DNA from: an uncultured cyanobacterium
GTDB taxonomy: Bacteria; Cyanobacteriota; Cyanobacteriia; PCC-9006; JAAUQQ01
Direction: 5' to 3'
NCBI GenBank assembly: GCA_963718615.1
Contig: OY970368.1
Span: 5,024,001-5,088,000 of the forward strand
Length of the DNA stretch: 64,000 nucleotides
Of the stretch, positions 4,434-53,012 are shown in pieces. Within the stretch, counting starts at the first letter, position 1. Each line of letters starts with the position of its first letter. The notes below the pieces were generated by a model that saw only the letters and a list, made by a program, of their open reading frames with translations, did no database searches and was not told the DNA's origin. The translations under genes were made by a program, and so were the position numbers.

Positions 4434-4742
4434 GTGAAAAGCTGGTTTCTTTATCTCATTCGGTGTCGTGATCATTCGCTCTATGTTGGTATCACAACCG
4501 ATATTAAGCGACGGTTTGCAGAACATTCGGCCCAAGGCCCCCGCTGTGCCAAGTATTTGCGAGGCCGCGCACCGCTCACGCTGGTGTACCAAACAGAAGT
4601 CGGCACAAAATCAGCAGCCTCTCGCCTAGAACTGCGACTGAAGCGCTGGCCCAAGGCCAAGAAAGAAGCGCTGGTGCTCGGACAAATCCCCTTAGACCCT
4701 AGTTTGCCTTCGACCGCAACGTCCCCGACCGCCGAGGCTTGA
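4434..4742 (+). CDS. GIY-YIG nuclease family protein (YhbQ/UPF0213-like)
   Basis: WFLYLIRC-x4-LYVGITTDIKRRFAEH...AKYLRGR...E-x3-K pattern. GTG start at 4434 inferred. Confidence 0.88.
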   Translation: MKSWFLYLIRCRDHSLYVGITTDIKRRFAEHSAQGPRCAKYLRGRAPLTLVYQTEVGTKSAASRLELRLKRWPKAKKEALVLGQIPLDPSLPSTATSPTAEA

Positions 4743-5565: not shown

Positions 5566-5610
5566 TCTATACCGAGCGGTCTTGAATGGCCCGTCTTTTT
5601 GAACTGACCT

Positions 5611-8600
5611 CTAGGGATCACCCTGGAGGGGAAGCCGGGGACAATCGGCAGCGCTGAGCTGGAGATAATCCAGACATTCCTGCGGGGTGAGCTGACGGAA
5701 GCTGCGATCGCGCGCCAGTTTGCGCAAACTCTTGGCCGTCGCGGCCCAAAAGGCAACGGTGCCCTCGGTATTCACCGCTGCGATAAATTGCCCATCGGGG
5801 CTATAGGTCACCTGGACAATGCCTTCCGTTACGTCCTGGGGGGTCTCTAGCGGGGTCTCTAGCAAGGTAATCTGACCCGTTTTGATCGACCAAAGGCGCA
5901 CAGTGCCATCGCGGTGGCCCGTGGCAAGCTGCTGCCCCTCGGGGGAAAATGCCAGGTCGCGGATGGGGCTCATTTTTGCTCCCGGTTCTGGCCCCTGCCC
6001 CAGGGATTGGGTTTGGCCCGTTTTCAGGTCGATCAGGGTGAGCGCACCGTCGGAGAACGTGGCTGCCAGGGTTTTGCCACTGGGATCGAGATGGGCGATC
6101 GCGATCCCCGGTAATTCAAACCGATGCAATTGTTTGCCGGTTTTGACGGCCCAGAGAGTGACAGTACCCGTCGGACTCACGGTTAAGAGGCGTCTGCCAT
6201 CGTGGCTAAACTGGGCGCTGGCGATCGCCCCCAAGGCTTGGGGCCAGAGGGCCTGTTGCCCACTATCTGTATCCCAAAGATGCAGCTGCTGGTGACGATC
6301 GATGGCCAAAAGGCTGCGACCTTCAGGGCTGAGCTCAAGGGTTTGCAGCGCCGGGGAGGACGGCGCGGAGTCGGTAGTCCCTTGGGATTCCAGATCCGGG
6401 TCTAGATTCGGGTTCACAGTGGCGTCTAGCGGATCCAGATCCGTCACTAAAATCTCGGCCCGGCGCAGATCCCAAACCTGAATATCCCCATTGGCATGGG
6501 CCGTGGCAACGGTCTGAAAATCGCCAGTCCAGTCGGCTAACTGAATCGGGGAGTGGGGCTCAATGTCGAGGACAGCGGTTTCCTGCTGAAAGCCTTGGGG
6601 AATGTTCCAGCGGTTGAGCTGACCGGCTGAGTCCAAGAGCAAAAACTCCAGGCCCGTGGGTCGGGTCGATCGCACCTGGAAGGGTTGGCGCGGTTGCAGT
6701 CCTAGCCAGCGCAGCGGGGCCAGGAGGCGATCGGGCACGGGCGCAGGTTGAGCCTCGGATTGAGAACTGGCAGCAGCCATCGGCTCCAGGATCGGCTCTA
6801 CCGATGCCCTAGGGAAGACTTGCGCAAAGCCCTGACGAATTCCCTCGGTGTGCAGGGGCGGCAGCTCATACCCTGGCTGGGCATCCCAAAATTGCAGATG
6901 GCGCGCATTGACGGTCACAAGGGTGTTGCCATCGGGGCTAAAGCGAGCATCCAGCAGGTCGGAAGCCTCGTCGGCCTCGCGCAGCACCGCCTGTCTGTGG
7001 CCCGTTTTGAGGTCCCAAAGCTGGGCAGCGTGGGGCTGAATTGCCAGGAGTTGGGTGCGATCGCCCTTCAACCGCACCAGGGGCACATCCGCGCCCTCGG
7101 TCAATTGCAACAGATTTTGTAGTTCTCCCGTTGCGGCATCCCACAACCAGGCCCGATTGCCCTGCACCGAGATCACTTGCGATCCGTCCGTCGAAAAGTC
7201 AAGCTGCTGGGGCTGCCCGGTTTGGATTTGCAACGACGCGGTGACCCGCAGTTGGTGACGCAATTCACCAGTGGCACGATCCCAGAGGTAGAGCGTACCG
7301 TTATGGCCGACAGCGGCGATCGCCCCCGTCTGCGGACCCAATTTTGGACTCAGACGAATCTGGGTAATGGGCGTGGAGGCACTCAGTTCTAGCTCCTGAA
7401 TGCCGGTTTCCAGATCCCAGAGACGCAAACGGCGATCGCCCCCGCTGGTCAAGAGATAGCGACCATCCTCACTAAACTGCATCTGTTCCACTGGGGTGTC
7501 ATGGTCGAGGGTTCCGAGGAATCGCGGCTTGGTGCCTTCGGTATCCCACAGGTAAACCAAACGACCGGCGATCGCCGCCAACCGGGGCTGGGTCGGACTA
7601 TATAAAATCTGCTCCGGCGGTATCGGCAAGTCTGTGAGCACCTGCTTCACCTGGCCCGAAGGCAAGGACCAAATGGCAATTTCTGGGCGATCGGGGGTCA
7701 TGGCCGCCAGTTGATCGCCCGTGGGACTGAGACTCAGCCCCGTAATCCGCACCTCAGCCACCGGACGGGAAGAGGTATCCACAAACGCGAAGCGCTGGAG
7801 GTCAGGCCCAACTCCGACATTGCGGGTGGTCTGGAGCGAACCAGCGCTCGCCATCGCCGGTTGAGCCAACAACGACTGCATCAGCCGAGAGGCGCGAGTG
7901 GCAGCGGGTTCCTGGGGCCAGACTAATTTTTGCTGAATGCGGGCGGATTGTTGCTGATCTAAGATAGGACCCACTTTCCAAAAATAGGCTTGTCCCATAG
8001 GGTCAATTCCGGCAATCAGAGGCTGTTGGCTAGACCACTGGAGCGATCGCGGTGCCGTCCGGGTTTTGTACTCTGCCCGCAGCTGCATACTGCGCAGCGC
8101 CTCTCGCAGAAGCTGATCCGAAGCGGGATCAAGGACTTGTTCCGGCGACGGAGGCATGGTCCAGCGGCTGAGCAGCAGCGCTGGGGTCGGGTCGGCCTCG
8201 TCATTGGCCAAAATCTTTTGGGCCGCTTGGCGACTGGGCAAGGTTTGAGCAGCGGGGGGATGAGACCCGGACCAATATTGATGCACCACGGCAAAGAGCG
8301 TTGCCGTCAGTGCCGAGGGCAGTCCGACCTGCAACAATCGTGAACTGTGTCGCAGCTTCTGGTTTTCCTTTTGACTCAAGTGGATGTAGTGCTGCGCAAT
8401 CGACGACAAATCCTCAGGATGATTGCGCAAATAGGCTTCTGCTGCCCGGAGCTTGGTTCCCTGGAGCCAGCCTTCACCACTGAACAACTCGTTGCGATCG
8501 CACCATTCCTTTGCCGCTGCTTCAATCCAGCGCTGTTGGGTGAGGCGATCGCGATCGGTTTTAAGCCACTGTCGCAGATCGGGCCAGTCCCGGATCAGGG

Positions 8601-39129: not shown

Positions 39130-39320
39130 TATTGATTGTCTGAATGGGAAGAATAGTCCCTAGTTCTACCCCTCATCCCCTTCCTCAAGGGTGCAAGAGG
39201 TAGTCTCGCTCACGAAACAGGTCGGAATTGCGTGTCAGCATGAGTTAGGGAAACGACTTTTCTGAGCTTGGTTGCACCTGTTCTGCCGATTGCCGCTAGT
39301 TGCTTTTCGCGCTACTCACT

Positions 39321-41297
39321 ATGGGAAAAGTTATAGGAATCGACCTGGGAACCACAAATAGTTGTGTCGCGGTCCTGGAGGGGGGGAAGCCCATCGTTAT
39401 TTCCAATTCGGAAGGCGGGCGAACCACCCCGAGTATGGTGGGTTTTGGCAAATCGGGCGATCGCCTCATTGGTCAATTGGCCAAGCGTCAGGCAGTCACC
39501 AACGCAGAAAACACGGTCTACAGCATCAAGCGTTTTATTGGTCGCCGCTGGGATGATACCCAGGAGGAGCGATCGCGCGTTCCCTACGGCTGCATCAAAG
39601 GACGGGACGATACGGTAGATGTGGAAGTGAGGGGAAAGAACTATACCCCTCAAGAGATTTCTGCCATGGTTCTGCAAAAACTCAAGCAGGATGCAGAAGC
39701 CTTTTTGGGCGAAGCCGTCACCCAAGCCGTCATCACCGTTCCGGCCTACTTCACCGACGCCCAACGCCAAGCCACCAAAGACGCTGGGACGATCGCCGGT
39801 TTGGAGGTGATGCGGATCATCAACGAGCCCACAGCCGCAGCGCTCTCCTACGGTCTGGATAAACAAGAGGAAGACCAAACCATTCTGGTCTTTGACCTCG
39901 GGGGAGGAACGTTCGACGTTTCCATTCTTCAACTCGGCGATGGCGTCTTTGAGGTGAAATCAACCTCCGGCAACAACCATCTCGGGGGCGATGACTTTGA
40001 TAATGTCATTGTCGAATGGATGGTCATGACCTTTAAGGAGCAAGAAGGGGTTGACCTCGCCGCCGACAAAATGGCCCTTCAGCGCCTCCGGGAAGCTGCC
40101 GAGAAAGCCAAAATTGAGCTTTCTAGCATGCAGACCACATCCATCAATCTGCCCTTTATCACAGCGGATGAGAGTGGCCCCAAGCATCTGGAAATGCAGC
40201 TAACCCGTGCCAAGTTTGAGGAATTGGCATTGGATCTGATCAAGGGCACCATCAACCCTGTCCGTCAGGCACTCAAGGATAGCGAGCTCCGGCCTGAAGA
40301 TATCAACCGTATTATTTTGGTCGGGGGCTCTACCCGAATTCCAGCGGTTCAAAAGGCCATTAGTTCCTTCTTTAGCGGCAAAGCACCCGATCGCTCGGTC
40401 AATCCCGACGAAGCCGTTGCCTTGGGGGCGGCCATTCAAGGCGGTGTCTTGGGGGGTGAGGTTAAGGATCTACTCCTGCTCGATGTCATCCCGCTCTCCC
40501 TGGGGATCGAAACCCTCGGGGGCGTCTTCACCAAAATTATTGAACGCAACACTACGATTCCCACCAGCCGCACCCAGTCCTTCTCAACGGCCACCGATGG
40601 CCAAACCATGGTTGAGATCCATGTGCTCCAAGGGGAGCGCGCGATGGTGAATGACAACAAGAGCCTCGGTAAATTCCAGCTCACCGGCATTCCGCCCGCC
40701 CCCCGTGGTGTTCCTCAGATTGAAGTGTCGTTTGATATCGATGCCGATGGCATTCTCAATGTCTCAGCCCGAGATAAGGGGACAGGTCGTGAACAAAGCA
40801 TTCGCATCACCAATACGGGCGGTCTGAGTTCAGCCGAGGTGGAGCGAATGCGCAGCGAGGCTGAAATTTATGCGGAAGATGACGATCGCCGGATTCAACT
40901 GGCGGAGCTCCGTAACCAGGCCGAAACCTTGTTCTATAGCTATGAAACGGCGCTGAAAGACAACAGCGACTTGGTCAGCGATAGCATGAAAGCCCAAGCA
41001 GAAGCCAAACGGGCCGAGCTCGCAGCAGCGGCTGAAACAACAAAAACAACACCCGAAGCCATGAAGGCTCTGTTAGATGAGTTTCAGCAGGTGGTGCTCT
41101 CCATTGGCGCGGCAGTATATCAGCAGTCTAATGCGGCTACACCCGCTTCCATGCCCGACGCAGACGACTTCTTAAGCGTCAGCGAACCATCAATGGCAGA
41201 AGCTGCCACCACAGGCTCTGAGCTCATTGGTGAAGACGACTTCTGTTTTGACGATGAGGAGGATACGGTGGTCTCTGACTACGAGGCGGTGGAATAG
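39321..41297 (+). CDS. dnaK: Hsp70 chaperone
   Basis: [27 protein letters not shown]; acidic tail. Confidence 0.97.
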
Positions 41298-41326
41298 GTG
41301 AAAGCCTTTCCTGCCGATTTTTGGCA

Positions 41327-41358
41327 TTGCGCATCTGAATCTCCCCTCGGATGCGCAA
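41327..41358 (+). terminator. Stem-loop between dnaK and dnaJ
   Basis: TTGCGCATC...GATGCGCAA inverted repeat with a weak U-tract. Confidence 0.45.
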
Positions 41359-41414
41359 ATAATTGTTAAGGTTGAAATTGCTCTCTCCTGCGGATTGTTA
41401 CTCCCAATCTCTCT

Positions 41415-42536
41415 ATGGCCCGTGACTACTACGAGATTCTAGGTGTCCCCCGAACAGCGGACAAAGATGAGCTGAAGCGAGCTTACCGTCGCCTTGCCCG
41501 TAAGTATCACCCCGATGTGAACCGAGAGCAGGGGGCAGAGGAGCGTTTTAAGGAAATCAATCGCGCCTACGAAGTCCTCTCTGAGCCCGAAACCCGAGCC
41601 GCCTACGATCGTTTTGGCGAAGCCGGGATCTCAGGGGCCGGGGGACCGGGTTTTCAAGACATGGGAGATATGGGCGGCTTTGCCGATATCTTTGAAAGCT
41701 TTTTTAGTGGCTTTGCTGGGGGAGGCCCCGCCGGAGCCACGCGGCGTCGGGGACCCATGCGAGGGGACGATCTGCGGCTGGATCTACGGCTGGATTTTCA
41801 AGAAGCCATTTTTGGGGGCGACAAGGAAATCCGCATCAATCATCTAGAGACCTGTAACTCCTGCTCCGGCAGCGGTGCAAAACCTGGGACTCGTCCGCGT
41901 CCCTGTCCGACCTGCTCCGGCAGCGGCCAAGTTCGTCGCGCCACCCGGACGCCCTTTGGCAGCTTTACTCAGGTTTCGGTTTGCCCCAACTGTGAGGGCT
42001 CGGGCCAAATTATTGAGGACAAATGTATTGATTGTGGTGGCTCGGGCCAAAAGCAAATCAAGAAGAAGCTCAAAATTACGGTGCCCCCCGGTGTAGACAG
42101 CGGTACGAGGCTACGGGTACCGGGTGAGGGAGATGCGGGTCAGCGCAATGGCCTTCCAGGGGATCTCTACGTCTATCTCTATGTCAACGAAGACCCCAAA
42201 TTCCGGCGGGATGGGATTAATATTCTGTCGGATATCAAGGTGACCTATTTGCAGGCCATTTTGGGGTGTCACATTGAAGTGGAAACGGTTGATGGTCCAG
42301 CGGAGGTAACGATTCCTGCCGGGACGCAGCCGAACACGGTGTTGACGCTAGAAAAGCGGGGTGTTCCTCGCTTGGGGGATCCCGACACCCGTGGTGACCA
42401 TCTGATGACCGTTTTGGTGGAAATTCCGACCAAACTCTCCCCTGAAGAGCGTGATCTCCTAGAAGGGCTGGCCCGATTGCGGGGAGAACAAACCGGTAAA
42501 GGGGGAGGCTTTCTCGGGGGCCTTTTCCGGAGCTAG
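41415..42536 (+). CDS. dnaJ: Hsp40 chaperone
   Basis: HPD motif, G/F region, four CxxCxGxG. Confidence 0.97.
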
Positions 42537-42543
42537 GGCGACC

Positions 42544-42795
42544 ATGACTATCCAAACACAGCCTTACGAATCCCTCGATCTGCGAGGCACGCCTTGTCCC
42601 CTCAATTTTGTGCGGACTAAGCTCAAGCTTGAACAACTGCCCCCTGGCACCTTGCTTGAGGTCTGGCTGGATCCGGGGGAACCGATCGAACAGGTGCCCG
42701 ATAGCCTGAAGATGAGCGGTTATCCCATTGAAAGTTTGGAAGCGCGGGAGGGTTTCTTTGCGCTCCAAGTGCGGCGTCCTGCGGAAGCTTCATGA
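42544..42795 (+). CDS. TusA/SirA-family sulfur carrier
   Basis: LDLRGTPCPLNFVRTK. Confidence 0.88.
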   Translation: MTIQTQPYESLDLRGTPCPLNFVRTKLKLEQLPPGTLLEVWLDPGEPIEQVPDSLKMSGYPIESLEAREGFFALQVRRPAEAS

Positions 42796-43904
42796 CCCGC
42801 GAACGCCAAGGAGAGCCTGAAAAGGTCCTGAGGGATCTGTTGGAGGGAACCGTGGTGGCGGTGCAGGCCAATTTTTACCAGGTTCAATTTGCCCAGGGAA
42901 CAAGCCTGCTGTGCACTCGGCGATCGCGTCTCAAGAAAATGGGTCAGCGGGTGATGGTGGGCGATCGCGTCCAGGTCGAAAAACCCGATTGGGGAGGCGG
43001 ACGCGGGGCGATCGCGGCGGTCTTGCCGCGCCGTAGCGAGCTCGATCGGCCTCCGGTTGCTAATGCGGATCAAATTTTGTTGGTGTTTGCCCTCGAAGAA
43101 CCGACCCTTGATCCCCATCAGCTCACGCGCTTTTTGGTGAAGGCGGAATCCACGGGATTAGAGATTTTGTTGGGGTTGAGTAAGGGGGATTTGCTGAGTG
43201 AAGCGCAGCGTCAGGACTGGCGCGATCGCCTAACAAATTGGGGCTACCCGGTCTATTTTCTCAGTCTGTTTCAAGCCGATGAATTTGACTCATTGCAACA
43301 GGCCCTTGTCCAAAAGATCACGATTGTTGCGGGTCCATCGGGGGTGGGCAAGTCGAGTTTAATCAATCGCTTAATTCCTGATTTAGCTTTGCGGGTGGCA
43401 GCCGTCTCCGGCAAGCTTGGGCGCGGACGACACACCACGCGCCATGTGGAATTGTTTGAACTGCCCCAGGGCGGACTGCTGGCAGATACCCCCGGCTTTA
43501 ATCAACCCAGTTTTGACTGCGGACCCGTGGAATTGGGACAATTTTTCCCGGAGATTCGGCAACGACTCACGCAGCAGTCTTGCCAATTTAGTGACTGTCT
43601 CCATCGGACAGAACCGGGCTGCGGCGTGGGCAAAGACTGGGAACGTTACGGGGATTATCTAACGCTGCTGGAAGAGGTGGAGCAGGGCTATTGGGCGGCG
43701 CGGAGCCAGCATACTAGCGAGGCTGGAGTAAGGGAAAAAGTGGGCAGTGATGGCCAGGTACAAATTGAGCCCAAGTTGATCCAAAAGCGATTTCGTCGTC
43801 AATCTCGCCGCTCTAAGCATCAAGAATTTGCCCATTTAACGGGCAGGATGGAGGATGTGAGGCGGTCCTTGGATGAAGAGGGAGGGCTAGATGCTGATGC
43901 TTAG
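42792..43904 (+). CDS. rsgA: Small ribosomal subunit biogenesis GTPase
   Basis: VGD-x-V, GPSGVGKSS, GRHTT, DTPG, C-x-FSDC-x-H-x2-EPGC. Confidence 0.95.
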   Translation: MTRERQGEPEKVLRDLLEGTVVAVQANFYQVQFAQGTSLLCTRRSRLKKMGQRVMVGDRVQVEKPDWGGGRGAIAAVLPRRSELDRPPVANADQILLVFALEEPTLDPHQLTRFLVKAESTGLEILLGLSKGDLLSEAQRQDWRDRLTNWGYPVYFLSLFQADEFDSLQQALVQKITIVAGPSGVGKSSLINRLIPDLALRVAAVSGKLGRGRHTTRHVELFELPQGGLLADTPGFNQPSFDCGPVELGQFFPEIRQRLTQQSCQFSDCLHRTEPGCGVGKDWERYGDYLTLLEEVEQGYWAARSQHTSEAGVREKVGSDGQVQIEPKLIQKRFRRQSRRSKHQEFAHLTGRMEDVRRSLDEEGGLDADA

Positions 43905-43951
43905 GAGGGAGGAGATGTAGATGTGGGCGCACTTGGGTCTGAAGGTTGGTC

Positions 43952-44650
43952 CTAAGGCAGAGATTTTGGGAAGTAAGTTTTGAGAAAAGGCTCACGGCAC
44001 CCCAGACGTTTGAGTACAGCCAAACAGTCTCGATTGCGAATTTCCAGCACAAGGCTGGTGATCGCTTGGGCTTGCTCGGGTTGGGCGGTGATTGTTTGGG
44101 TCTGATCGACCTGACTCAGAAGTTGCTGTTGTTCCTCAGGTTTTCGCCGTAGGGCAAAATCCCTCTGGAAATAATTGCGTAGATAGTTGAGCCCAGAGAT
44201 AGGGGTTGCGCTCGGCTGCAAAAGTTCAACCTCAAGATCGGTTGTAAACGCGGCCAGTTTACCGCTTTGTCGTGCCGCAATTTGCTGGTAGGCCAGTTGA
44301 GTCAGGGCAAAGTAGAATTTGTCGAGGGGCACGCCAGCAAAGCCCAGATCGATATTTGCATTGACAAAGGCGGTAAATCCAAGACCTACAGTAATGGCCT
44401 TGAGAACGATATCGAGCGTGATGGGAGTCTGGAGGCTAGCGGGATACAGAAGCCACAGGCAGGCCATGGGCAAGAAAAGCTGAAGGAGCACCCACCACCA
44501 AAGGCCAATAGATTTCCAGGGGGCGAAGAAGGGCGATCGACAATCGCGGGCAAATTTTTCGTAGGCAATGAGCAGGTTAAACACACCTGTGAGCAAGGCT
44601 ACGGCGGCAACAGGAAGCCAAGTGCCAATCTGCTGCATGATCTGCTGCAT
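43952..44650 (-). CDS. Hypothetical protein with 3-4 N-terminal TM helices and a soluble C-terminus
   Basis: ATG at 44650 overlaps the upstream TAA (TAATG). Hydrophobic segments in the N-terminal half. Confidence 0.75.
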   Translation of the reverse strand: MQQIMQQIGTWLPVAAVALLTGVFNLLIAYEKFARDCRSPFFAPWKSIGLWWWVLLQLFLPMACLWLLYPASLQTPITLDIVLKAITVGLGFTAFVNANIDLGFAGVPLDKFYFALTQLAYQQIAARQSGKLAAFTTDLEVELLQPSATPISGLNYLRNYFQRDFALRRKPEEQQQLLSQVDQTQTITAQPEQAQAITSLVLEIRNRDCLAVLKRLGCREPFLKTYFPKSLP

Positions 44651-45348
44651 TAACGGTTGCCTCGCCTTGCCCATTGAATGGGGGGGTGGAGATGAAAGTA
44701 GCCTTTTGAGGTGAGGGAAAGGAAAAGCTTGGATGAAACGGGTTGTTGGCGGTATTGGCGATCGCGCAATCCCGGCAAAACCGTATAAAGCATGGGCGCA
44801 GAGAGTTGATCGATGTACCCTTTTCTCCAAAGCGATTGAACTAGAGCTTTGGTTTGGTCGAGGGGTTGATTGAGGCGATAGGCTAAGTCTTGAGGGCGTA
44901 GCGGGTGCTGGGAGAGGGCTTGTAGGATCGCGGTTTGGATTTGGTGAGTGGTGGTTTCTCCGCAAGATTGCGAAGCGATCGACTCTGACATCTGAGTCAG
45001 TAACGTTTCGACTTGCTTGGCCAAAGCATTCGCGATTTGCCCTAAGCCATTTAGGGGGCCAACGCTATCGGCGACTAAAACAGCACTCTTGGCACGTTCT
45101 TGAGCACTATAGTTGCGCTTGCGTTGTTGCAGCGCTTGACCATAGGCCTGGTCGATGCTGGAAGAGGACTGCACGAGCTGGCAGAGCTGCTGCGCGGACC
45201 CAGGGGCTTGGTTTTGCCAATGTCGAATGGCCTCTAGGAGTTGAGTGAGTTCCTCACCTGAAATATCTGTGGCAAATTGCTCTAGGGCATCTTGCAGCAC
45301 AGCCAGATCGATCTGGTCTTTGCTCAGATTTTCGGGGGAAACGCTCAT
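44650..45348 (-). CDS. Hypothetical protein, helical N-domain plus winged-HTH-like C-domain
   Basis: ATGA overlap with the CHAT gene. ILQALSQHPL-x3-DLAYRL...VQSLWRKGYI...LTSKG. Confidence 0.75.
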   Translation of the reverse strand: MSVSPENLSKDQIDLAVLQDALEQFATDISGEELTQLLEAIRHWQNQAPGSAQQLCQLVQSSSSIDQAYGQALQQRKRNYSAQERAKSAVLVADSVGPLNGLGQIANALAKQVETLLTQMSESIASQSCGETTTHQIQTAILQALSQHPLRPQDLAYRLNQPLDQTKALVQSLWRKGYIDQLSAPMLYTVLPGLRDRQYRQQPVSSKLFLSLTSKGYFHLHPPIQWARRGNR

Positions 45349-48300
45349 GCGCTAATGCCTCCAGTGAGAATAAAGCCGGCCCAGTAGAAGGGATCCATGT
45401 AGGGCTGGGGTGCTGTTGTCATTTTACCCGGATTCTTTGCCCAGTCCTCTTCAAGCAGGATTTGTTCGGCTTCGAGTTCCTTGCGCCAGTGATAGCCCAA
45501 GTTGCCTCTATTTTTCAAGTCTGAAATCCAGGCAATCAGGGCTGGGTACTCAATTTCTCGGAGCCATTGTTGGGCTTGGTGAAGGGCGGTTCCAGGACTG
45601 CTGCCCTCCAAGAGAATCTGATAAAACCGGATCACAAGCCAGGTGCTGGCGATTTCGTCCACTTGCCAGAGGGTGCTGAGGACGTTGGCGGCTCCGGCTT
45701 TGAGGAAGGCGCTGGTGAGGCCGACGTATTCTTGGTCGAGGGTTTGGTTGCCGCTGAGGGCGGTTTCGCAGGCGGCGATCGCGGCCAGACAGTAGGGTTT
45801 GAGGTTGAGTTGGGCGATCGCCCGAGCATCCATCAAGCCATCGCTAAGCTGAAGGGCGGATTGCTCGGGCTGGCGGTAGTTGTGGGTGCCGTGGCCGGTG
45901 AAGTGGAAGAAGCCCTGATGGGTTTGGAGAGCTGCGGTGATGGCGGTTTGGGTCACGTCATCGGCGTCGAGGGTGGGGCCGTTGGGCAGGAGGGCTCGGA
46001 GGATGGCGGCTTCGAGGGCGGAGTAGAGCAGCGGCGGTTGGCTCAAGTCGGGGTCTTGGACGATGGGGTCTTTGATGCAGAGGAGGGCGGGGTCGTTCGG
46101 CAGGGGCTGCGCTTGGGCTTGGAGGCTGAGGCCGGTTTGGAGGCTGGGCAGGTAGGTGCAGCGGTATTGGTCGTCGAAGCATGCGTGCAGCGGGAAGCAG
46201 TGGAGGTCGCGGTGGGGGATGAGGATGAGGTGGTCGATGTTTTGGCCAGTTCCCTGGCCAGCTCCCTGAAGATATTGGGTTTCGATTTCGGGGAGGCCGA
46301 GGAGGTCGCGAAGCTCTTGGATTTGGGCACTGAGGCCGGTGCGCCAGGGGTGGGTTTTGCGTTCTGTGGCGGTGATGTCTTTGCCTTTGGCGCGGTAGTC
46401 GCGGTAGTGGGCATCCCAGGTTTTGCGCCAGGTGTTGAAGCAGTGCTGGCGGTGGCGCAGGGCGGCGGGGTCGGGGTCGAGCAGGATGGGGTCGGGGTGG
46501 TGGGGTAGGAGCAGGAAGGTTGTTAAGGCATCTGTGCTTAGGTGCCAATACACCACTGCGGCATGGCCTGGTTTGGGCGGGGACGAACGCGGTTCGTCCG
46601 TACGGTGGTGGGTTGGATTGGCAATTAATTGCCGTAGGGTGGCGTGGCTGGGGCTGGTGATGGTTTCTTGCCAGTGGTCGAGGATCCAGGTGAGGCGGCG
46701 GTTTTTATAGAATTCGGCGGTTTCGAGGGCGGCGATGGGTTGGCCCTCGGCGATGAGGCTATCGACAGCGATGTGGCTGAGGCCGCTGAATTGGGTTTCG
46801 AGGCGTTGTTTGGCTTGGGTTGTGGGGGCTTGGTTGAGGAGGGTTTGGAAGAGGCGGAGGGCTTCGATGCGGTATGCCGTGGCATTGGTGGGTTGGTGGA
46901 GGGTGAGGCAGAGGCGGATGAGGCTTTGTAGGACTTCGAGGCGGAGGGGGAGGATTTTGGGGGTGTCTGGGTGATTTTTGGGGAGGGTTTCGGGGGTGAG
47001 GAGGGTGAGGGCGGTTTGGTAGGCGGTGAGGGCTTGGTGCCAGCACTGGCGGGCTTGGGTGGGGTTTCGTTCGTTATCGGCGTGGTGGTTGCCCTGAAGG
47101 CGGTGGGTTTCGCCGAGTTGGTGTTGCAAGTAGCCGTGGCCGAGGGGATGGGTGGGGGCGGGGCATTGGCGCAGGCCCTCCTGCAGGCTGGCGAGTTGGC
47201 CGGGGTAGCCGCGTTTGTTCAGGTGAGGATTGTTGAAGCGGAGGGCGGCGGGGGTGTGGGGATGGGCTACGCTGGGGGTGGGGGCGGCGAAGGTGGTTGT
47301 ACCTACGCTATACGTAGAGCTTTTGGCAGCGATGCCCCGGTTGGTCCAGGCTTCGTGAAAGTCCGGTTTGATTTCGAGGGCTTTGTCGGAGCTGGCGATT
47401 GCTTCCTCATATCGACCTAAATGATCACATAGGGTTGCTCCCCGGTTGCCCCAGGCTTCGTGCAAGTCCGGTTTGATTTCGAGAGCTTTGTCGTAGCTGG
47501 CGAGCGCTTCCTCATACCGGCCTAAGTTATCGAGTGAATTGCCCCGGTTGGTCCAGGCTTCGTGAAAGTCCGGTTTGATTTCGAGGGCTTTGTCGGAGCT
47601 GGCGAGCGCTTCCTCATACCGGCCTAGGTTTCCGAGTGAAACGCCCCGGTTGTACCAGGCTTCGTGAGAGTCCGGTTTGATTTCGAGGGCTTTGTCGGAG
47701 CTGGCGAGCGCTTCCTCATACCGGCCTAAGTTATTGAGTGAATTGCCCCGGTTGGTCCAGGCTTCGTGAAAGTCCGGTTTGATTTCGAGGGCTTTGTCGT
47801 AGCTGGCAATCGCCTCCTCATCGCGGCCTAAGTTAGCGAGTGAATTGCCCCGGTTGGTCCAGGCTTCGTGATCGTCCGGTTTGATTTCGAGGGCTTTGTC
47901 GGAGCTGGCGAGCGCTTCCTCATACCGGCCTAGGTTTCCGAGTGAAACGCCCCGGTTGTACCAGGCTTCGTGAGAGTCCGGTTTGATTTCGAGGGCTTTG
48001 TCGGAGCTGGCGAGCGCTTCCTCATACCGGCCTAAGTTATTGAGTGAATTGCCCCGGTTGGTCCAGGCTTCGTGCAAGTCCGGTTTGATTTCGAGGGCTT
48101 TGTCGTAGCTGGCGATCGCTTCCTCATACCGGCCTAAGCTTCCGAGTGAAATGCCCCGGTTGGTCCAGGCTTTGTGGTCGTCGGGTTTGAGTTTGAGGGC
48201 TTTGTCGTAGCTGGCGATCGCTTCCTCATACCGGCCTAGGTTTCCGAGTGAAACGCCCCGGTTGTACCAGGCTTTGTGAAAGTCCGGTTTGATTTCGAGA

Positions 48301-49202
48301 GCTTTGTCGTAGCTGGCGAGCGCTTCCTCATACCGGCCTAGGTTTCCGAGTGAAACGCCCCGGTTGTACCAGGCTTCGTGAGAGTCCGGTTTGATTTCGA
48401 GAGCTTTGTCGTAGCTGGCGAGCGCTTCCTCATACCGGCCTAGGTTTCCGAGTGAAACGCCCCGGTTGTACCAGGCTTCGTGAGAGTCCGGTTTGATTTC
48501 GAGAGCTTGGTCGGAGCTGGCGAGCGCTTCCTCATACCGGCCTAAGTTATCGAGTGAATTGCCCCGGTTGGTCCAGGCTTCGTGAAAGTCCGGTTTGATT
48601 TCGAGGGCTTTGTCGGAGCTGGCGAGCGCTTCCTCATACCGGCCTAAGTTAGCGAGTGAATTGCCCCGGTTGGTCCAGGCTTCGTGATAGTCCGGTTTGA
48701 CTTCGAGAGCTTTGTCGTAGCTGGCGATCGCTTCCTCATACCGGCCTAAGTTGAAGAGTGAAAGGCCCCGGTTGTACCAGGCTTTGTGGTCGTCCGGTTT
48801 GATTTCGAGGGTTTTGTCGTAGCTGGCGATCGCTTCCCCATAACAACCCTGCCCAAAAAGCGCATTGCCTTTCCCTAACCACCGCTCCGCCGTATCCAAG
48901 ACGCCAGTCAACTCAGCTTCCCGCTGTTGCACCTGCCGCTCCAAAACCTCCATCCGCCGCACCGCCACCAACCCCGTATCTACCCCAAACGACTCCGCCG
49001 TCTTTAGGGTCTCCAACGCCTCTTCATACTTCTCCTCCTGAGCCTGCTGCCAAGCCAACCGCAACCAAAAATCCTCATCACTCGGCCCCTCCACCGAAGA
49101 ATCAGACAAAGGCTTCTGTAGCCCGCTCTCTGACCACTCTGGGCTCTCAGCCTCCGGCACCGCCTCAACCCGCTGCTCCCGCTTCCCAAACGGCCACACC
49201 AT
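45345..49202 (-). CDS. TPR-repeat CHAT-domain protease
   Basis: About 15 TPRs. CHAT motifs LILIPHRDLH, HFTGHG, AACET, STLWQV, AL-x2-AQ-x-WLR, PFYWAGF. ATG at 49202 supported by the duplicated copy. Confidence 0.93.
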   Translation of the reverse strand: MVWPFGKREQRVEAVPEAESPEWSESGLQKPLSDSSVEGPSDEDFWLRLAWQQAQEEKYEEALETLKTAESFGVDTGLVAVRRMEVLERQVQQREAELTGVLDTAERWLGKGNALFGQGCYGEAIASYDKTLEIKPDDHKAWYNRGLSLFNLGRYEEAIASYDKALEVKPDYHEAWTNRGNSLANLGRYEEALASSDKALEIKPDFHEAWTNRGNSLDNLGRYEEALASSDQALEIKPDSHEAWYNRGVSLGNLGRYEEALASYDKALEIKPDSHEAWYNRGVSLGNLGRYEEALASYDKALEIKPDFHKAWYNRGVSLGNLGRYEEAIASYDKALKLKPDDHKAWTNRGISLGSLGRYEEAIASYDKALEIKPDLHEAWTNRGNSLNNLGRYEEALASSDKALEIKPDSHEAWYNRGVSLGNLGRYEEALASSDKALEIKPDDHEAWTNRGNSLANLGRDEEAIASYDKALEIKPDFHEAWTNRGNSLNNLGRYEEALASSDKALEIKPDSHEAWYNRGVSLGNLGRYEEALASSDKALEIKPDFHEAWTNRGNSLDNLGRYEEALASYDKALEIKPDLHEAWGNRGATLCDHLGRYEEAIASSDKALEIKPDFHEAWTNRGIAAKSSTYSVGTTTFAAPTPSVAHPHTPAALRFNNPHLNKRGYPGQLASLQEGLRQCPAPTHPLGHGYLQHQLGETHRLQGNHHADNERNPTQARQCWHQALTAYQTALTLLTPETLPKNHPDTPKILPLRLEVLQSLIRLCLTLHQPTNATAYRIEALRLFQTLLNQAPTTQAKQRLETQFSGLSHIAVDSLIAEGQPIAALETAEFYKNRRLTWILDHWQETITSPSHATLRQLIANPTHHRTDEPRSSPPKPGHAAVVYWHLSTDALTTFLLLPHHPDPILLDPDPAALRHRQHCFNTWRKTWDAHYRDYRAKGKDITATERKTHPWRTGLSAQIQELRDLLGLPEIETQYLQGAGQGTGQNIDHLILIPHRDLHCFPLHACFDDQYRCTYLPSLQTGLSLQAQAQPLPNDPALLCIKDPIVQDPDLSQPPLLYSALEAAILRALLPNGPTLDADDVTQTAITAALQTHQGFFHFTGHGTHNYRQPEQSALQLSDGLMDARAIAQLNLKPYCLAAIAACETALSGNQTLDQEYVGLTSAFLKAGAANVLSTLWQVDEIASTWLVIRFYQILLEGSSPGTALHQAQQWLREIEYPALIAWISDLKNRGNLGYHWRKELEAEQILLEEDWAKNPGKMTTAPQPYMDPFYWAGFILTGGISA
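47330..48890 (-). repeat. Near-identical 102-bp tandem repeats encoding TPRs
   Basis: About 15 copies of HEAWxNRGxSLxNLGRYEEAxASxDKALEIKPDx. Confidence 0.92.
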
Positions 49203-49289
49203 CGCCCCATCTCCCACCAATACCTCCCCGCATTCTCCCAGAGATACCCCAGCCCGTCCGCGTATTTTTAATAACCTTCAAGAAACCCA
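49161..49289. repeat. Copy 1 of the duplicated CHAT-gene leader and 5' end
   Basis: Matches 49817-49945. Confidence 0.85.
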
Positions 49290-49452
49290 AATATTTCTCC
49301 AACCCAAGCCCCGGCCCAGATACCAAGCTAAACACCAGGTATTTATCTCAAATACCCGCCTCACCTTCCAGAATCAGAAAACACCCGGTGTCTGCGGTAG
49401 TCTAGTGAGTCGGTTATGAACCATAACAGGGCGTGGGTGTCGAGAAGTACTT

Positions 49453-49695
49453 TCATTCCATGTACTCCCGAAAATCGTCGAGCGGGGCATTAAAGTCGGG
49501 GAGGATGCGGATGAGTCCTCGGGCAGAACCAGGTATGCGACGCTCTTGCGAGGCGGGTTTTAGTTCATGTCCGATCGCGTCGGTTGGTTGGGGGGCTTGG
49601 ATGTTGAGGAGGAAATCAATAAAGTCAAGGACGAGTTTGGCGAGGGGATCGGGGAGTTGGCGGAGTTTGGCGATCGCGGTTTCGTGGGTGTTCAT
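49453..49695 (-). CDS. DUF2281-type antitoxin-like protein
   Basis: LP-x5-VLDFIDFL...R-x-PGSARG-x-I-x-I-x-PDFNAPL. Confidence 0.8.
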   Translation of the reverse strand: MNTHETAIAKLRQLPDPLAKLVLDFIDFLLNIQAPQPTDAIGHELKPASQERRIPGSARGLIRILPDFNAPLDDFREYME

Positions 49696-49816
49696 CGGTC
49701 TGTATGGATTGAGTTTGGAGTGCTCTCTATTTTAGCGTTTGTCCCTCAGGCCCAGAAGCACCCATTCTGTGTTGTCCAGGCATCTCGTCGTCCGTTTTCA
49801 ACTCCCGCTACGCCCC

Positions 49817-49945
49817 CGCCTCAACTCGCTCCGCCCGCTTCCCAAACGGCCAAACCATCGCCCCAGCTCCCGCAAAAACCTCCCCGCATTCTCCCAGAGA
49901 TTCCCCAGCCCATCCGCGTATTTTCAATAACCTTCAACAAACCCC
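49817..49945. repeat. Copy 2 of the CHAT-gene leader with a truncated start
   Basis: Encodes MVWPFGKRAERVEAGA* vs MVWPFGKREQRVEAV. Confidence 0.85.
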
Positions 49946-50124
49946 AAGCATCCCACCCGCATCCGCATCCGCCCAAAGCAAGACCCCAGAAGGTTCACCC
50001 AACCACTTTGGAACCTACCCCAGCCTCCGCAAACCCCTGGGGTCTGTCCACCCCAGCCCCCGCAAACCCCCGAGGTCTGAACTAATGCTAGCCTTAGCTC
50101 AATACCCTTTTCATCTCCCAGACC

Positions 50125-50385
50125 ATGACCGCCAAAGACCGACTCCTCCAAGAACTTGACCAAACCCCAGACTTCCTCATCGAAGAAGTCCTTCACTTTC
50201 TTCTCTTCCTCAAAAACCGCCTCTTCAACCGCCCCCCACAACCCAACACGCCTAAAGAAGACAGCCTCCTCAATTGGGTCGATCGCTTAACCACCCAAGT
50301 CCCAGAAGCCGCTTGGCAACAAGTCCCCACCGACCTCGCCCAAAACCTCGATCACTATCTCTACGGCTCCCCCAAAGAATCGTGA
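50125..50385 (+). CDS. DUF2281-like antitoxin
   Basis: EEVLHFLLFLK...VPTDLAQNLDHYLYG. GTGA overlap with the PIN relic. Confidence 0.8.
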   Translation: MTAKDRLLQELDQTPDFLIEEVLHFLLFLKNRLFNRPPQPNTPKEDSLLNWVDRLTTQVPEAAWQQVPTDLAQNLDHYLYGSPKES

Positions 50386-50608
50386 AAACTTTGTCACACA
50401 AGCGATTACTCGTTCAGACATAGAAGTCATCGCAAAGTCTTCGGAGTTGTTTCAGCAGTCTTTGTTCCTCTACACACAACGGCCAGATCAAGACTGGAGT
50501 CAAACCGACTGCGCCTCATTTGTACTGATGCAACAAAACAGCATTACAGAAGCACTGGCCTACGACAAACATTTCGAGCAGGCTGGATTTATTGCCCTTT
50601 TACGCTAA
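50382..50608 (+). pseudogene. VapC/PIN toxin with N-terminal internal deletion
   Basis: GTG start is out of frame with WSQTDCASF-x-LM...ALAYDKHFEQAGF. Confidence 0.8.
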
Positions 50609-50621
50609 AGAAGCAAACGCA

Positions 50622-50870
50622 TCAGCCCTCGAACAAACTCAGAATTTCATCAGGTAGAGGTGCATCAAAATCATCCGGTACGACAAACTCACCCGCACAT
50701 AGACCAAAAGGCCGAGAAGTCGCTTCAGGCGCTGCCGTCCGCACTTCACCTGTTTCCACCCGAAACGACCAGATCCCTCGCCTTAAGAGAGCAAAAATCT
50801 TCAAAAGAATCTCGACCATTCCCTCGGGAGCTTGTAACAGTTCTTGGATCAGTTGCTCTCGTGGTGTCAT
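50622..50870 (-). CDS. DUF2281-type antitoxin-like protein
   Basis: RPFGLCAGEFVVPDDFDAPLPDEIL. Confidence 0.8.
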   Translation of the reverse strand: MTPREQLIQELLQAPEGMVEILLKIFALLRRGIWSFRVETGEVRTAAPEATSRPFGLCAGEFVVPDDFDAPLPDEILSLFEG

Positions 50871-50967
50871 GGGCCTAGACGGTCAATCCTGTTTGTTAGG
50901 CTAGCATCCATCACCGGAACAGCGCTAGAACTTTGGGCAAGAAACACCCGTTGTTTAAGAGAGGAGA

Positions 50968-51354
50968 CTATCTTTTTCGACTATCCCAACCCCGAAAAGC
51001 CGCAAATTTAGCCAAAACGTTCAGAATTCGCCGAAAGAAAGACAGCCAGACCGGAACATCCGCCACCGCCGCTTGTGACATTGCCACCGCATGAGCCGTC
51101 GAATCTGATGGAGCGATTACTTCACAAGCTTTCGGAGAAATCGCCCCCACCGGCACCGTCACCACATACTGCTCCCGCACCAAAGACTGCGACAGCTCCA
51201 GCACCGCCCCCAGCTCCCCTCCGCCGGGGTGCTCCAGGTAGTCAATGAGGATGGCGCGATTGCTTCGCAAGCTTTCGGAGAAATCGCCCACCTTCAGATC
51301 AGCATCAGGTACAGAGCGAATCAGTTCAACCTCTTCATAAAGCTCAGACTTCAT
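50968..51354 (-). CDS. DUF4926-like protein carrying two 8-aa insertions
   Basis: LYEEV-x-L...LKVGD...IDY...G-x-VLE. Insertions lie at HIP1 sites. Confidence 0.65.
   Translation of the reverse strand: MKSELYEEVELIRSVPDADLKVGDFSESLRSNRAILIDYLEHPGGGELGAVLELSQSLVREQYVVTVPVGAISPKACEVIAPSDSTAHAVAMSQAAVADVPVWLSFFRRILNVLAKFAAFRGWDSRKR
51113..51144. mobile_element. 24-nt mini-element inserted in a HIP1 site (copy A)
   Basis: GCGAT[TACTTCACAAGCTTTCGGAGAAAT]CGC. Confidence 0.75.
51256..51287. mobile_element. 24-nt mini-element inserted in a HIP1 site (copy B)
   Basis: GCGAT[TGCTTCGCAAGCTTTCGGAGAAAT]CGC. Confidence 0.75.
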
Positions 51355-51561
51355 TGCTCAGCCTCCTATCGATGAGGATACATTGATTCAGCTTGGCTGG
51401 AGGAATGATGGCATCTGGAGGGATTCTCATGCTTGCTCAACAGTACCGCATCGCATCTATGTTACTGCTCTCGCGGAGCTATTTCCTGAGCCCGTTGCCA
51501 AGCCAACCGCAACTAAAAATCCCTATCACCCGCTCCATCCACCGAAGCCGCTACGGATTCC

Positions 51562-51605
51562 TCCCCAGCCCAGCCGCGAATTTTCAATAACCTTCAACAA
51601 ACCCA
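51562..51605. repeat. Copy 3 (partial) of the CHAT-gene leader
   Basis: ccccagccc..ccgcg.attttcaataaccttcaacaaaccc. Confidence 0.75.
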
Positions 51606-51806
51606 GACATCTCGCCTGCCCAGGCACCCACTAAGACACTCTGCGTAGTGCTAACTTCCCTTCTCTCCCAAGCCTGAAAAAGCTGAAAATTTGCCAAAAA
51701 CCCAGACTCCATCACCGACGAAGCGCTCGAAGCACTAGAAATTAATCGGGTGCGCGCTAACGAGATATTGGGGCTATAGAGCATGGAGCCCAGCGTTTGA
51801 ACCCGT

Positions 51807-53012
51807 CTAAAGATAGTTCATCGGATCCACCGGCTCCCCATCCTTGCGCACCTCAAAATGTAAATGCGGCCCCGTTGACAACCCCGTCGACCCCGTCAGC
51901 GCAATAACCTGCCCCGCCTGAACCTCCTGCCCCTCCTGCACCAGCAACTCATTATTGTGGGCATAGAGACTGGTCATGCCATCGCCATGGTCAAGGATTA
52001 TTGCGTTCCCATAGCCCCCATACCAATCCCCATAGATCACCACCCCGGCTGCCGTCGCACCCACGGGCGTACCGTAATCCACCGCAAAGTCGATGCCGCC
52101 GTGAAACCGCTCGGTGCTCAGGACCGGGTGAATTCGCCAGCCAAAGGGGCTGCTAATGGGAGCATTGATGGGATAGCGGAAGGGACCTTTGCCATAAAAT
52201 CCAGGGGTATTGCGTCGCGCTGCGAGCTTTTGCTGAATCAACTGGGTAATACCTTCCGAGTCTCGCTGGAGCTGGGTTTGGGCCGCTTCTAGGGCATCGC
52301 GGTTTTCCTTCAGCCGTTGTATGAGCATTTGCTGTTGCTGATTCCGCTGCTCCAGGGTTGCCTTTTGCAGAAGCTGTTTTTGCCGCAGCAGGGCAATGCC
52401 GTTTTTTTGTTCTTCAATTTGTTCTCGCTGCTGGGTAAGCTGCTTGGCTTGGGTTTTGAGTTGGGTGAGGCGATCGCGATCACCCTCATACAACTTCTTC
52501 AAATAATACCGCCGCTGCAAAAACTCACTCACCGACTCACTTTGCAACAACACCGCCCAACCCTGAAGCTGCTGCTGTCGTTGCAACACCTGCAACCGAG
52601 CCACCGTTGCACCGCGCTGATTTTGATAGGTTTGCTGCGATCGCGCCAGATCTGTCTCTAATCCTTGCAGATAGCGCTCCGCCAAGTCCAAGCGGTACTG
52701 GCTATCCTGCAAGGCCCCTTCCGTTTGCACCAACGTCTGCTGAAGGTTCGTCAAATCCCCCTGCGCCTGTTGCTCTGCCCGCTTGATACGCTCCGTTGCC
52801 TGCTCAACCGCCTCCTGACGTTGTTCGATTTGTTGCTGCTGCTGTTCGAGCTGCTGGATTTCGTCTTGGGCGATCGCCGAAGGAGGCATGACCATGTTGA
52901 TCCAAAGCATCAAACCGAGAAACCCAACGAGAATATACGCGAAAACATTAGCGATCGCCCTCATCCAGATTCTCCGATCTAGCCACTGAGGTTGAGTTCC
53001 ACAGCGTTTCAT
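51807..53012 (-). CDS. Coiled-coil M23 peptidase (EnvC-like murein hydrolase family)
   Basis: HGGID, YGN, YAH, STGPHLHFE. Start may be at 52964. Confidence 0.92.
   Translation of the reverse strand: MKRCGTQPQWLDRRIWMRAIANVFAYILVGFLGLMLWINMVMPPSAIAQDEIQQLEQQQQQIEQRQEAVEQATERIKRAEQQAQGDLTNLQQTLVQTEGALQDSQYRLDLAERYLQGLETDLARSQQTYQNQRGATVARLQVLQRQQQLQGWAVLLQSESVSEFLQRRYYLKKLYEGDRDRLTQLKTQAKQLTQQREQIEEQKNGIALLRQKQLLQKATLEQRNQQQQMLIQRLKENRDALEAAQTQLQRDSEGITQLIQQKLAARRNTPGFYGKGPFRYPINAPISSPFGWRIHPVLSTERFHGGIDFAVDYGTPVGATAAGVVIYGDWYGGYGNAIILDHGDGMTSLYAHNNELLVQEGQEVQAGQVIALTGSTGLSTGPHLHFEVRKDGEPVDPMNYL

Follow-up and report, generated by a model that had tools for sequence, protein, structure and literature searches.

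A 64,000-nucleotide stretch from an uncultured cyanobacterium (contig OY970368.1; hereafter the window, with positions 1-64,000 counted over its whole length) carries an operon of three overlapping minus-strand open reading frames (ORFs). These encode a tetratricopeptide repeat (TPR)-CHAT protease, a middle protein (P2) and a membrane protein (P3). What does a caspase-fold protease do with two small proteins that are encoded directly behind it and match no named family? The surveys described below point to the N-terminal domain of P2 (the N-domain) as a regular companion of this protease. Different C-terminal domains, here called cargo, stand behind the N-domain in different genomes, and the domain itself ends in a conserved basic motif, ER-x-K. 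From these observations we propose that the protease gates an effector by cutting P2, a reading which, taken as a whole, we hold to be evenly balanced between right and wrong.

The protease clade and its N-domain partners

The census covered 401 sampled cyanobacterial genomes, partly as fragmented assemblies, with simple ORF calls, and related genomes were counted without independence. The CHAT domain of the window protease was searched in these genomes, and the clade discussed here is defined by an E cut-off (E<=1e-30), which gives 68 places in 54 genomes. An N-domain match lies at most 600 nt downstream on the same strand in 41 of these 68 places, within 48 nt in 36 of the 41, and 32 of the 35 best-scoring protease places have one. 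A further sample comprised 20 of the best clade places without P3. The ORF directly after the protease gene matches the N-terminal ~85-120 positions of the P2 profile in 18 of them, and in a 19th (L084, G252) the N-domain gene was found with the A3 model. At L074 the N-domain gene precedes the protease gene, from which one gene separates it. The genome of the window has exactly two clade proteases and two N-domain genes, one after each protease.

Eight loci contain the complete arrangement, in which the TPR-CHAT gene is co-directional with P2-P3 and directly upstream of it (the window, L037, L044, L056, L062, L063, L065 and L067, the last of these split). They span six taxonomic families. The CHAT domains of these proteases are 39-50% identical to one another, compared with 23-34% to other CHAT genes near such pairs, and on this measure the eight are one orthologous CHAT clade. 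The protease and the N-domain are very probably functional partners. A preliminary description of the locus, made from its sequence alone, had paired the protease with the middle protein and had named gene-neighbourhood conservation as a check. P2-type partners do co-occur with CHAT genes elsewhere, both at the eight P2-P3 loci and at the N-domain genes directly downstream of the 41 clade matches.

The protease of the window matches the Pfam CHAT family (PF12770; clan CD, caspase fold) at 4.3e-41, with 141.7 bits against a cut-off of 24, and contains 15 Pfam TPR_1 stretches. The HFTGHG motif begins at residue 1106 and the AACET motif at residue 1149. The corresponding catalytic dyad, His1110 (codon 45891-45893) and Cys1151 (codon 45768-45770), had been reported as intact in the preliminary description, and its equivalents are invariant in 25 of 25 orthologues. 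By domain match and dyad this is a genuine CHAT protease with predicted activity. Its TPR array is presumed to be the sensor or scaffold part. The hydropathy maximum of the first 120 residues is 0.65; lacking a hydrophobic N-terminus, the protease is probably cytoplasmic, as is P2, which has no hydrophobic segment.

The cargo behind the N-domain is diverse. In the window and the seven other loci with P3 it is a MarR-like winged helix. In L068-L072, L075 and L076 it is a glycine-rich hydrophobic hairpin, with sub-threshold matches only (C19orf12, Gly-zipper_YMGG and Bacteriocin_IIc), and the next gene is mostly a small membrane ORF. One example with a recognisable toxin is L073 (G398, 2907-4102), where an Xre_MbcA_ParS_C antitoxin domain (5.8e-15) is followed by a RES toxin gene (3e-30). 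Another is L085 (G125, 4288-5206), where the N-domain carries a tail and the next gene encodes a PemK/MazF toxin (6.7e-13). Short tails are found in L077-L084, followed by a gene for a 439-477-aa protein, and in L086 and L087 an unassigned C-terminal domain precedes a C-terminally anchored coiled-coil protein. Many protease partners are only 127-149 aa long and end in a low-complexity tail in which no cargo can be recognised. The preliminary description had seen the third gene as the slot of a membrane effector, and a toxin or membrane protein gene is indeed usual at this place in the sister modules.

Exchange of cargo can be followed on a protease tree built on the C-terminal 640 aa. One clade of this tree holds loci of the winged-helix-plus-P3 type interleaved with loci of the glycine-hairpin type, and its support is 98 in the Shimodaira-Hasegawa-like approximate likelihood ratio test (SH-aLRT). 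For instance, the sister group of L044 (winged helix and P3) is formed by L070 and L071 (glycine hairpin), which are from the same genus. A BLASTP comparison of the L044 and L070 partners aligns residues 5-84 with residues 2-82, ending at QER[A/S]K. As judged from these alignments, cargo has been swapped behind a constant N-domain. A search with the N-domain profile across 1.84 billion library representatives gives 481 proteins at E<=0.001, 214 of them at E<=1e-10. Of the 150 matches listed, 149 have the N-domain at their N-terminus, in proteins of 69-296 aa. Pfam (E<=1e-4) gives nothing for 141 of these 150 representatives. The remainder contain Xre_MbcA_ParS_C (3 proteins), PhdYeFM, DUF2250, TrmB, DUF4325 or HEAT (1 each), or a CHAT fragment in front of the N-domain (1 protein). 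The N-domain itself has no Pfam family recurrent among the 53 members of alignment A3 (E<=1) and no usable match in the ESM Atlas.

The ER-x-K motif marks the end of this shared domain, at the junction with a disordered linker. Its basic residue, in the region that the preliminary description had singled out as a possible cleavage site, is present in all 26 protease-adjacent partners (25 Arg, 1 Lys), mostly with Glu before it; as several alignment rows are offset by a column or two, this count was made by eye. When the P2 copies with P3 are searched with a regular expression, the motif turns up in 8 of 8 protease-adjacent copies versus 6 of 26 others, and three or four further copies retain an Arg. 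In the tree of P3, the loci with an adjacent protease occupy basal, scattered positions and require 4 changes; of the 18 members of a large clade without the protease, 17 no longer have the motif. Such decay after loss of the protease would fit relaxed constraint.

Two side observations concern the sister modules. The second module in the window genome (L087, G000:C1:4356500-4365500; 4263-7349 and 3636-4259, minus strand) is paralogous to the operon of the window. Its TPR-CHAT gene encodes 1028 aa, its partner of 207 aa joins the N-domain to the unassigned C-terminal domain, and its third protein is a coiled coil of 169 aa that is anchored by a hydrophobic C-terminal segment. Pieces of an IS1 transposase come after it. 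The 439-477-aa proteins form a family (L077-L084 and L089; e.g. L082:3032-4465:+) of 25-77% mutual identity over the full length, with no Pfam match.

The P2-P3 pair and its locus

The AlphaFold2 (AF2) model of P2 was made from a 35-row alignment and has a predicted local distance difference test (pLDDT) score of 84.3. Helices extend across residues 15-90, and the last one (63-90) bears the sequence Y80-S-A-Q-E84-R85-A-K87-S. Residues 92-96 fall below a pLDDT of 50 and are followed by a long helix and then the winged helix. Structural alignment with VIA-align places the winged helix among MarR/PadR structures at Z 9-11.5, with a root-mean-square deviation (rmsd) of 1.1-3.4 over 60-84 aa. The top rows are MarR 2qww (Z 11.5, rmsd 3.1, 77 aa) and TA0346 (Z 10.9, rmsd 1.6). 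The best Foldseek E for this part is 0.021, and a Foldseek search of the P2 and P3 models against the PDB returned nothing at E<=0.001. In the model, the C-terminal half of P2 has a bona fide MarR/PadR-type fold, with putative DNA binding. No family exceeds its cut-off for P2 in Pfam, NCBIfam or PADLOC. Below threshold, Pfam gives HTH_IclR (15.4 bits, cut-off 22) and MarR_2 (14.1 bits, cut-off 27), and two P2 relatives reach DUF2250 or TrmB; PADLOC gives JetC at noise level (0.0041, 13 bits).

P3 begins with three hydrophobic segments centred near residues 13-25, 55-65 and 84-91. Conserved residues of this membrane part are G22, N25, P44, W51, W53, P61, W66, G89 and N97. Its AF2 model (20-row alignment, pLDDT 84.5) ends in a helical tail. 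P3 matches no family in Pfam, NCBIfam or PADLOC, and the ESM Atlas offers only 'hypothetical protein' clusters. The tail was aligned exhaustively with 48,161 chains, and death-fold entries (CARD, DD, PYD, DED) make up about 30 of the 50 rows listed, at Z 5.2-6.8 over 78-92 aa. These include the CARD of Apaf-1 (Z 6.8, rmsd 3.1, 83 aa) and a MAVS CARD entry (Z 6.7, rmsd 2.5, 79 aa). The Foldseek probability for a death-fold match is 0.41 at best, and a Pfam search of 20 P3 family members at E<=1 yields one EAD5 match (0.03) and no recurrent family. The likeness of the modelled tail to the CARD/death fold is moderate and unproven.

Most of the architecture given in the preliminary description can be recognised in these models. 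For P2 it had listed a helical N-domain ending in YSAQERAKS, a linker and a domain resembling a winged helix-turn-helix, all of which are seen in the sequence and in the AF2 model. For P3 it had listed three to four transmembrane segments and a soluble tail, and three clear segments and a helical tail are found. Its analogy to gasdermins found no support. P3 has no gasdermin match in Pfam at E<=0.1 and none among the listed Foldseek or VIA-align rows, which leaves an unlisted family possible.

P2 and P3 are a conserved pair and the core of the locus. The P3 family occurs in 42 of the 401 genomes and 27 of 169 genera, nearly always as a single match. Of the 43 P3 loci compared besides the window, 40 have a P2 relative as the next gene upstream, on the same strand; the exceptions are L040, L041 and L066. 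The 40 upstream relatives comprise 33 full-length proteins, 6 that consist of the winged helix only (~100 aa) and 1 that is fused behind a GAF domain. By the ORF calls, P2 and P3 overlap by 1-7 nt in 25 of these 40 loci. Gene order and overlaps resemble those of type II antitoxin-toxin pairs, and P3 matches no toxin family. By position, the winged helix of P2 would correspond to the antitoxin domains of the sister modules and P3 to their toxins, and the stand-alone pairs would fit such a two-part unit.

Otherwise the surroundings of P2-P3 pairs differ from locus to locus, with histidine kinases, dnaX, RNase H and dnaA, and flavodiiron genes among the neighbours. In six loci (L030, L031, L035, L038, L039 and L040) P3 is flanked by a pair of flavodiiron genes. 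In G000, G023, G286 and G347 there are only two flv matches, and one of them shares 68-73% identity with the Flv protein encoded upstream of P3 in these six loci. By sequence the cluster looks like flv3/flv1 with two inserted genes, not like flv4-sll0218-flv2. The idea that P3 is Sll0218/ColA, the product of the middle gene of the latter, is weakened, as the flanking Flv proteins look flv1/flv3-type; this was judged from the flanking genes only. Another variant is L036 (G002, L036:3902-5686:-), where a 594-aa protein with GAF before the P2-type winged helix is followed by a divergent P3, perhaps as a version of the pair that senses a small molecule. The genes after the pair differ between two related genomes. 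A Pepco protein and a Peptidase_C14-GUN4 protein are encoded in one (L042:9846-11738, G286), and a 201-aa ORF and a TIR-GUN4 protein in the other (L043:9885-12031, G318), which is an effector swap at one position. CHAT genes of other types also occur near some P2-P3 pairs. These are TPS-CHAT (two-partner secretion) and TPR-CHAT with DUF928 and CHASE2-GGDEF; they are probably chance neighbours or separate modules and are not counted as support.

The coordinates of the window operon are collected in Table 1. Both gene overlaps of the preliminary description are present in the sequence. The identical gene order with overlaps of 1-7 nt was found again in other genomes, and this recurrence makes the operon more than chance.

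Table 1. Coordinates of the genes, domains and overlaps of the operon in the window.
Feature	Position	Strand	Remarks
TPR-CHAT protease gene	45345..49220	-	1291 aa from TTG 49220; first ATG at 49202
TPR array	47286..48893	-	~residues 110-645, ~15 repeats; Pfam TPR families and 15 'AW.NRG' signatures; boundaries approximate
CHAT domain (caspase fold)	45360..46322	-	residues 967-1287, Pfam
ATGA overlap	45345..45348	-	protease stop codon / P2 start codon, read on the reverse complement
P2 gene	44650..45348	-	232 aa
P2 N-domain	45073..45348	-	residues 1-92, helical, alignment A3; common to small genes after CHAT genes of the clade
E84-R85-A86-K87 motif	45088..45099	-	end of the N-domain; R85 codon 45094-45096, proposed P1 residue
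P2 winged helix-turn-helix	44671..44961	-	~residues 130-226, structural alignment
TAATG overlap	44648..44652	-	P2 stop codon / P3 start codon, read on the reverse complement
P3 gene	43952..44650	-	232 aa from ATG 44650; longest ORF call begins further upstream; family alignment A1
P3 membrane part	44351..44629	-	~residues 8-100; three hydrophobic segments
P3 C-terminal soluble six-helix domain	43958..44266	-	~residues 129-231; AF2 model

The flanks were examined over window positions 40000-53000. On one side lie rsgA, tusA, dnaJ and dnaK, and on the other small DUF2281 ORFs and an M23 peptidase gene. Downstream of the operon, the opposite strand of window 39300-43904 encodes a TusA-family protein (2.4e-17) and RsgA (2.6e-55), together with dnaK-like and dnaJ-like ORFs that were recognised by eye from their translations. 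Three small ORFs lie just upstream of the protease gene, at 49453-49695 (-), 50125-50385 (+) and 50622-50870 (-). Two of them match DUF2281 (3.3e-10 and 1.2e-4), and the third has a similar acidic 'DDFDAPLP'-type tail and no Pfam match. No toxin-like partner gene was identified among these small ORFs. The non-TPR half of the protease gene (window 45500-47500) has a GC content of 0.61-0.62 and a strong positive GC skew, compared with 0.52-0.57 in its flanks. A scan of the locus for promoters and terminators gave nothing over shuffled expectation.

Protease-gated effector or membrane-linked regulator

The proposed gating would proceed in five steps. The cytoplasmic TPR-CHAT protease would hold P2 by means of the ~85-aa N-terminal docking domain, and a signal would be sensed by the TPR array or by bound partners. 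The CHAT domain would then cut P2 at ER-x-K, most likely after Arg85, at the junction of docking domain and linker. The MarR-like winged-helix half of P2, the constant partner of P3, would be freed or destabilised, and the activity or expression of P3, whose CARD-like bundle would lie on the cytoplasmic side, would change. The gene order and overlaps, the intact dyad, the domain architecture, the two gene linkages (protease to N-domain, winged helix to P3) and the pattern of motif conservation are observed; we infer the binding of P2 by the protease, its cleavage together with the site, the consequence for P3 and the nature of the signal. The cleavage is drawn from the conserved motif and from the precedents of HetF-PatU3, Csx29-Csx30 and MaOC1-antitoxin, as far as the excerpts of those reports used below describe them. 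A cut in P2 at or near R85 appears slightly better supported than not. The view of P3 as the controlled membrane effector is more tentative and leans towards doubtful; it is drawn only from the position of P3, the one that RES and MazF toxins occupy in the sister modules.

Several observations weigh against a protease-gated effector. Among the 124 N-domain places in the 401 genomes, 8 have both the clade protease and P3 nearby, 33 the protease only, 27 P3 only and 56 neither. Hence 27 of the 35 places that combine the N-domain with P3 have no protease of this clade. Some of these protease-less pairs sit between dnaX and RNase H/dnaA, and the short winged-helix-only P2 copies sit with P3 between two flavodiiron genes. 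Such housekeeping contexts look more like those of a vertically inherited regulator than of a toxin module. On the side of the protease, 27 of the 68 clade places, mostly weaker matches, have no N-domain gene. When 20 of the 56 'neither' places were sampled, 1 had a TPR-CHAT gene missed by the E cut-off and 19 were orphan ORFs, mostly of ~131 aa (L088-L107, e.g. L093, L099 and L105). These match the N-domain profile more weakly (E 1e-9 to 1e-14) and stand alone in varied housekeeping contexts with no CHAT gene near, so the N-domain is not exclusive to the protease. The association of motif and protease is a trend and not significant, with only 3 independent contrasts and a sign-test p of 0.25-1. 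For P3, the CARD-like scores lie below Z 8 for a helical bundle and possibly reflect a common helical arrangement, and no CARD or Death match was found among 20 P3 family members (Pfam, E<=1). Finally, no defence-system model of PADLOC-DB 2.0 fits the three proteins, P2 and P3 giving noise only.

The main rival takes P3 to be a membrane sensor or anchor and P2 its transcription regulator. The protease would be an optional input that processes P2, and no toxin-like effector would be involved. This would account for a conserved core of winged helix and P3 (40 of 43 loci) that often lacks a protease, as in the 27 places above. It also agrees with the stable housekeeping neighbourhoods (dnaX, RNase H, dnaA) and the position between two flavodiiron genes, with the mostly single P3 match per genome and with the MarR/PadR-type fold of P2. 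Control of transcription factors by CHAT proteins has precedents in the Csx30 and DdvA systems, to the extent that the excerpts cited below describe these. A purely regulatory role fits poorly with the sister modules, where RES toxins, MazF toxins or small membrane proteins fill the P3 slot. The alternation with glycine-zipper-like hairpins in one protease subclade points to a membrane-acting output, and P2 is without a known DNA target. We consider this rival rather unlikely.

A different role for the partner is suggested by separase, a CHAT-domain relative that is controlled by a securin-like inhibitor. The N-domain protein may likewise be a securin-like pseudosubstrate, an inhibitor or a chaperone, with the real substrates elsewhere and with C-terminal domains that localise the complex to DNA or membrane. 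One-to-one pairing of protease and partner genes with translational coupling would be expected of such an inhibitor, as would the many short partners that end in low-complexity tails. The fusion to antitoxin domains with toxin genes downstream is hard to square with localisation, and a conserved Arg at a domain junction beside a disordered linker fits a true cleavage site better, which makes an inhibitor improbable. Still less probable is that P2 stays uncut and serves as an adaptor, its N-domain bringing the protease to whatever the C-terminal half binds, here P3, as the real substrate. The cargo does include domains that bind proteins: the antitoxin domains, and the winged helix with P3 as its constant companion. 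The glycine-zipper and short-tail partners are without an obvious second substrate, the conserved motif lies in the partner itself, and no comparable basic motif was seen in the linker of P3, where none was searched for. A fortuitous neighbourhood, in which a CHAT paralogue common in cyanobacteria lies beside a gene pair that has nothing to do with it, is scarcely credible. CHAT genes are numerous in cyanobacteria, and those of other types (two-partner secretion, DUF928, CHASE2) do occur near some P2-P3 pairs. Chance would not be expected to give 8 loci from 6 taxonomic families the same orthologous protease clade, gene order and overlap of stop and start codons, or to link protease and N-domain in 41 of 68 clade matches.

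Known systems and wider meaning

The closest known arrangement is the type III-E Craspase, in which a TPR-CHAT protease, Csx29, is encoded with a dedicated substrate. In the excerpts of its description used here, Csx29 docks Csx30 by one domain and cuts it in a flexible loop, which leads to control of a sigma factor (PMC10028731). Docking and cleavage of the same kind are proposed for P2. The two CHAT cores are distantly homologous, as the CHAT profile matches the solved Craspase TPR-CHAT chains at 1.5e-11 to 3.6e-9. The window differs in that no Cas7-11 (gRAMP), Csx30, Csx31 or sigma-factor gene is found between positions 40000 and 53000. Its protease is not a Csx29 orthologue, reaching 45 bits with the NCBIfam Csx29 model, below the cut-off of 300, and only generic TPR models in PADLOC-DB 2.0. 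The partner is unrelated to Csx30, and its proposed docking domain is N-terminal and ~85 aa long. In addition, Csx30 cleavage is described in the same excerpts as independent of any single residue (PMC10028731), whereas the window module has a conserved Arg. Neither PADLOC-DB 2.0 nor a literature search found a named system for the operon, and the preliminary description had recognised none. No description of the N-domain or the module was found in the literature, as far as the sources used here extend; supplementary neighbourhood files of PMC8195603 and PMC7159879 may list such loci.

HetF is a membrane and divisome protein, and PatU3 is an inhibitor of division and heterocyst formation. In Anabaena PCC 7120 the pair offers a cyanobacterial precedent, as HetF is a CHAT protease with one specific small substrate and an Arg site: according to the excerpts used, it cuts PatU3 after the essential Arg117, with S118 next (PMC9457339). 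Unlike the module of the window, HetF is without a described modular cargo family. Another example is the orthocaspase MaOC1 of Microcystis, which is reported to cut the antitoxin of an adjacent ParE/ParD-like pair at basic residues and so to activate the toxin (PMC7935541). The same logic is proposed for the RES and MazF variants and, by analogy, may apply to P2-P3. MaOC1 is a C14 orthocaspase with no CHAT domain and a single described case, and the excerpts of its description mention no docking domain on the antitoxin (PMC7935541). In Myxococcus, DdvA is described as bearing a TPR-CHAT module (PMC11506125). DdvA-DdvS resembles the proposed scheme in that proteolysis frees or inactivates a transcription regulator at the membrane. 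It differs in that, in the same excerpts, the CHAT part is periplasmic, has an incomplete active site and lies within the anti-sigma factor itself (PMC11506125).

For comparison among protease-controlled regulators, RseA/DegS and BlaR1/BlaI may serve, but only as general parallels. Bacterial gasdermins are membrane-acting proteins that are activated by the product of a neighbouring protease gene. The operon of the window differs from them in having its candidate cleavage motif in the middle protein and not in the membrane protein. Small terminal helical adaptor domains that couple proteases or NTPases to variable effectors, the effector-associated domains (EADs), are reported in cyanobacteria, and death-fold similarity is reported for such domains (Kaur et al., 2021; PMC8195603). 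The N-domain is alike in being a small terminal helical domain that links a protease to variable effectors. In the EAD systems, as described in the excerpts used, the same domain is present on both partners, whereas the P2 N-domain was not detected in the window protease. EAD and Death models of Pfam give single weak matches only, for the N-domain as for the P3 tail. In sum, we rate a caspase-fold protease with a dedicated linked substrate as known, and the docking domain, the conserved Arg motif and the swapping of cargo as new.

CHAT proteases are abundant in cyanobacteria, and few have a known substrate (HetF-PatU3 and Csx29-Csx30). For a whole protease clade there are now candidates for the substrate family, the docking domain and the P1 arginine. 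More generally, the loci may represent a modular family of sensor TPR-CHAT caspases that are hard-wired to their substrates by an ~85-aa, Arg-ending tag with exchangeable cargo, the version in the window being a pathway from a caspase to a death-fold membrane effector. The cargo would then comprise antitoxins for RES, MazF and Phd-type pairs, glycine-zipper membrane peptides and, in the window, the winged-helix protein with its membrane-anchored, CARD-like partner. This generalisation is speculative and somewhat doubtful. The fusion of the N-domain to antitoxin domains beside RES and MazF toxins suggests that a caspase-fold protease can gate toxin-antitoxin pairs as well as membrane effectors. 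One experimental case of such gating was found in the sources used here, that of MaOC1 (PMC7935541). L073 and L085 would be the cleanest loci for the putative release of a toxin under protease control. The possible death-fold tail of P3 would, if true, pair a bacterial caspase with a CARD-like domain, which would bear on the origins of programmed cell death. If the general reading of a modular family holds, the N-domain tag would act as a portable handle, similar to a degron, for a single protease family, and it could be of use as a tool.

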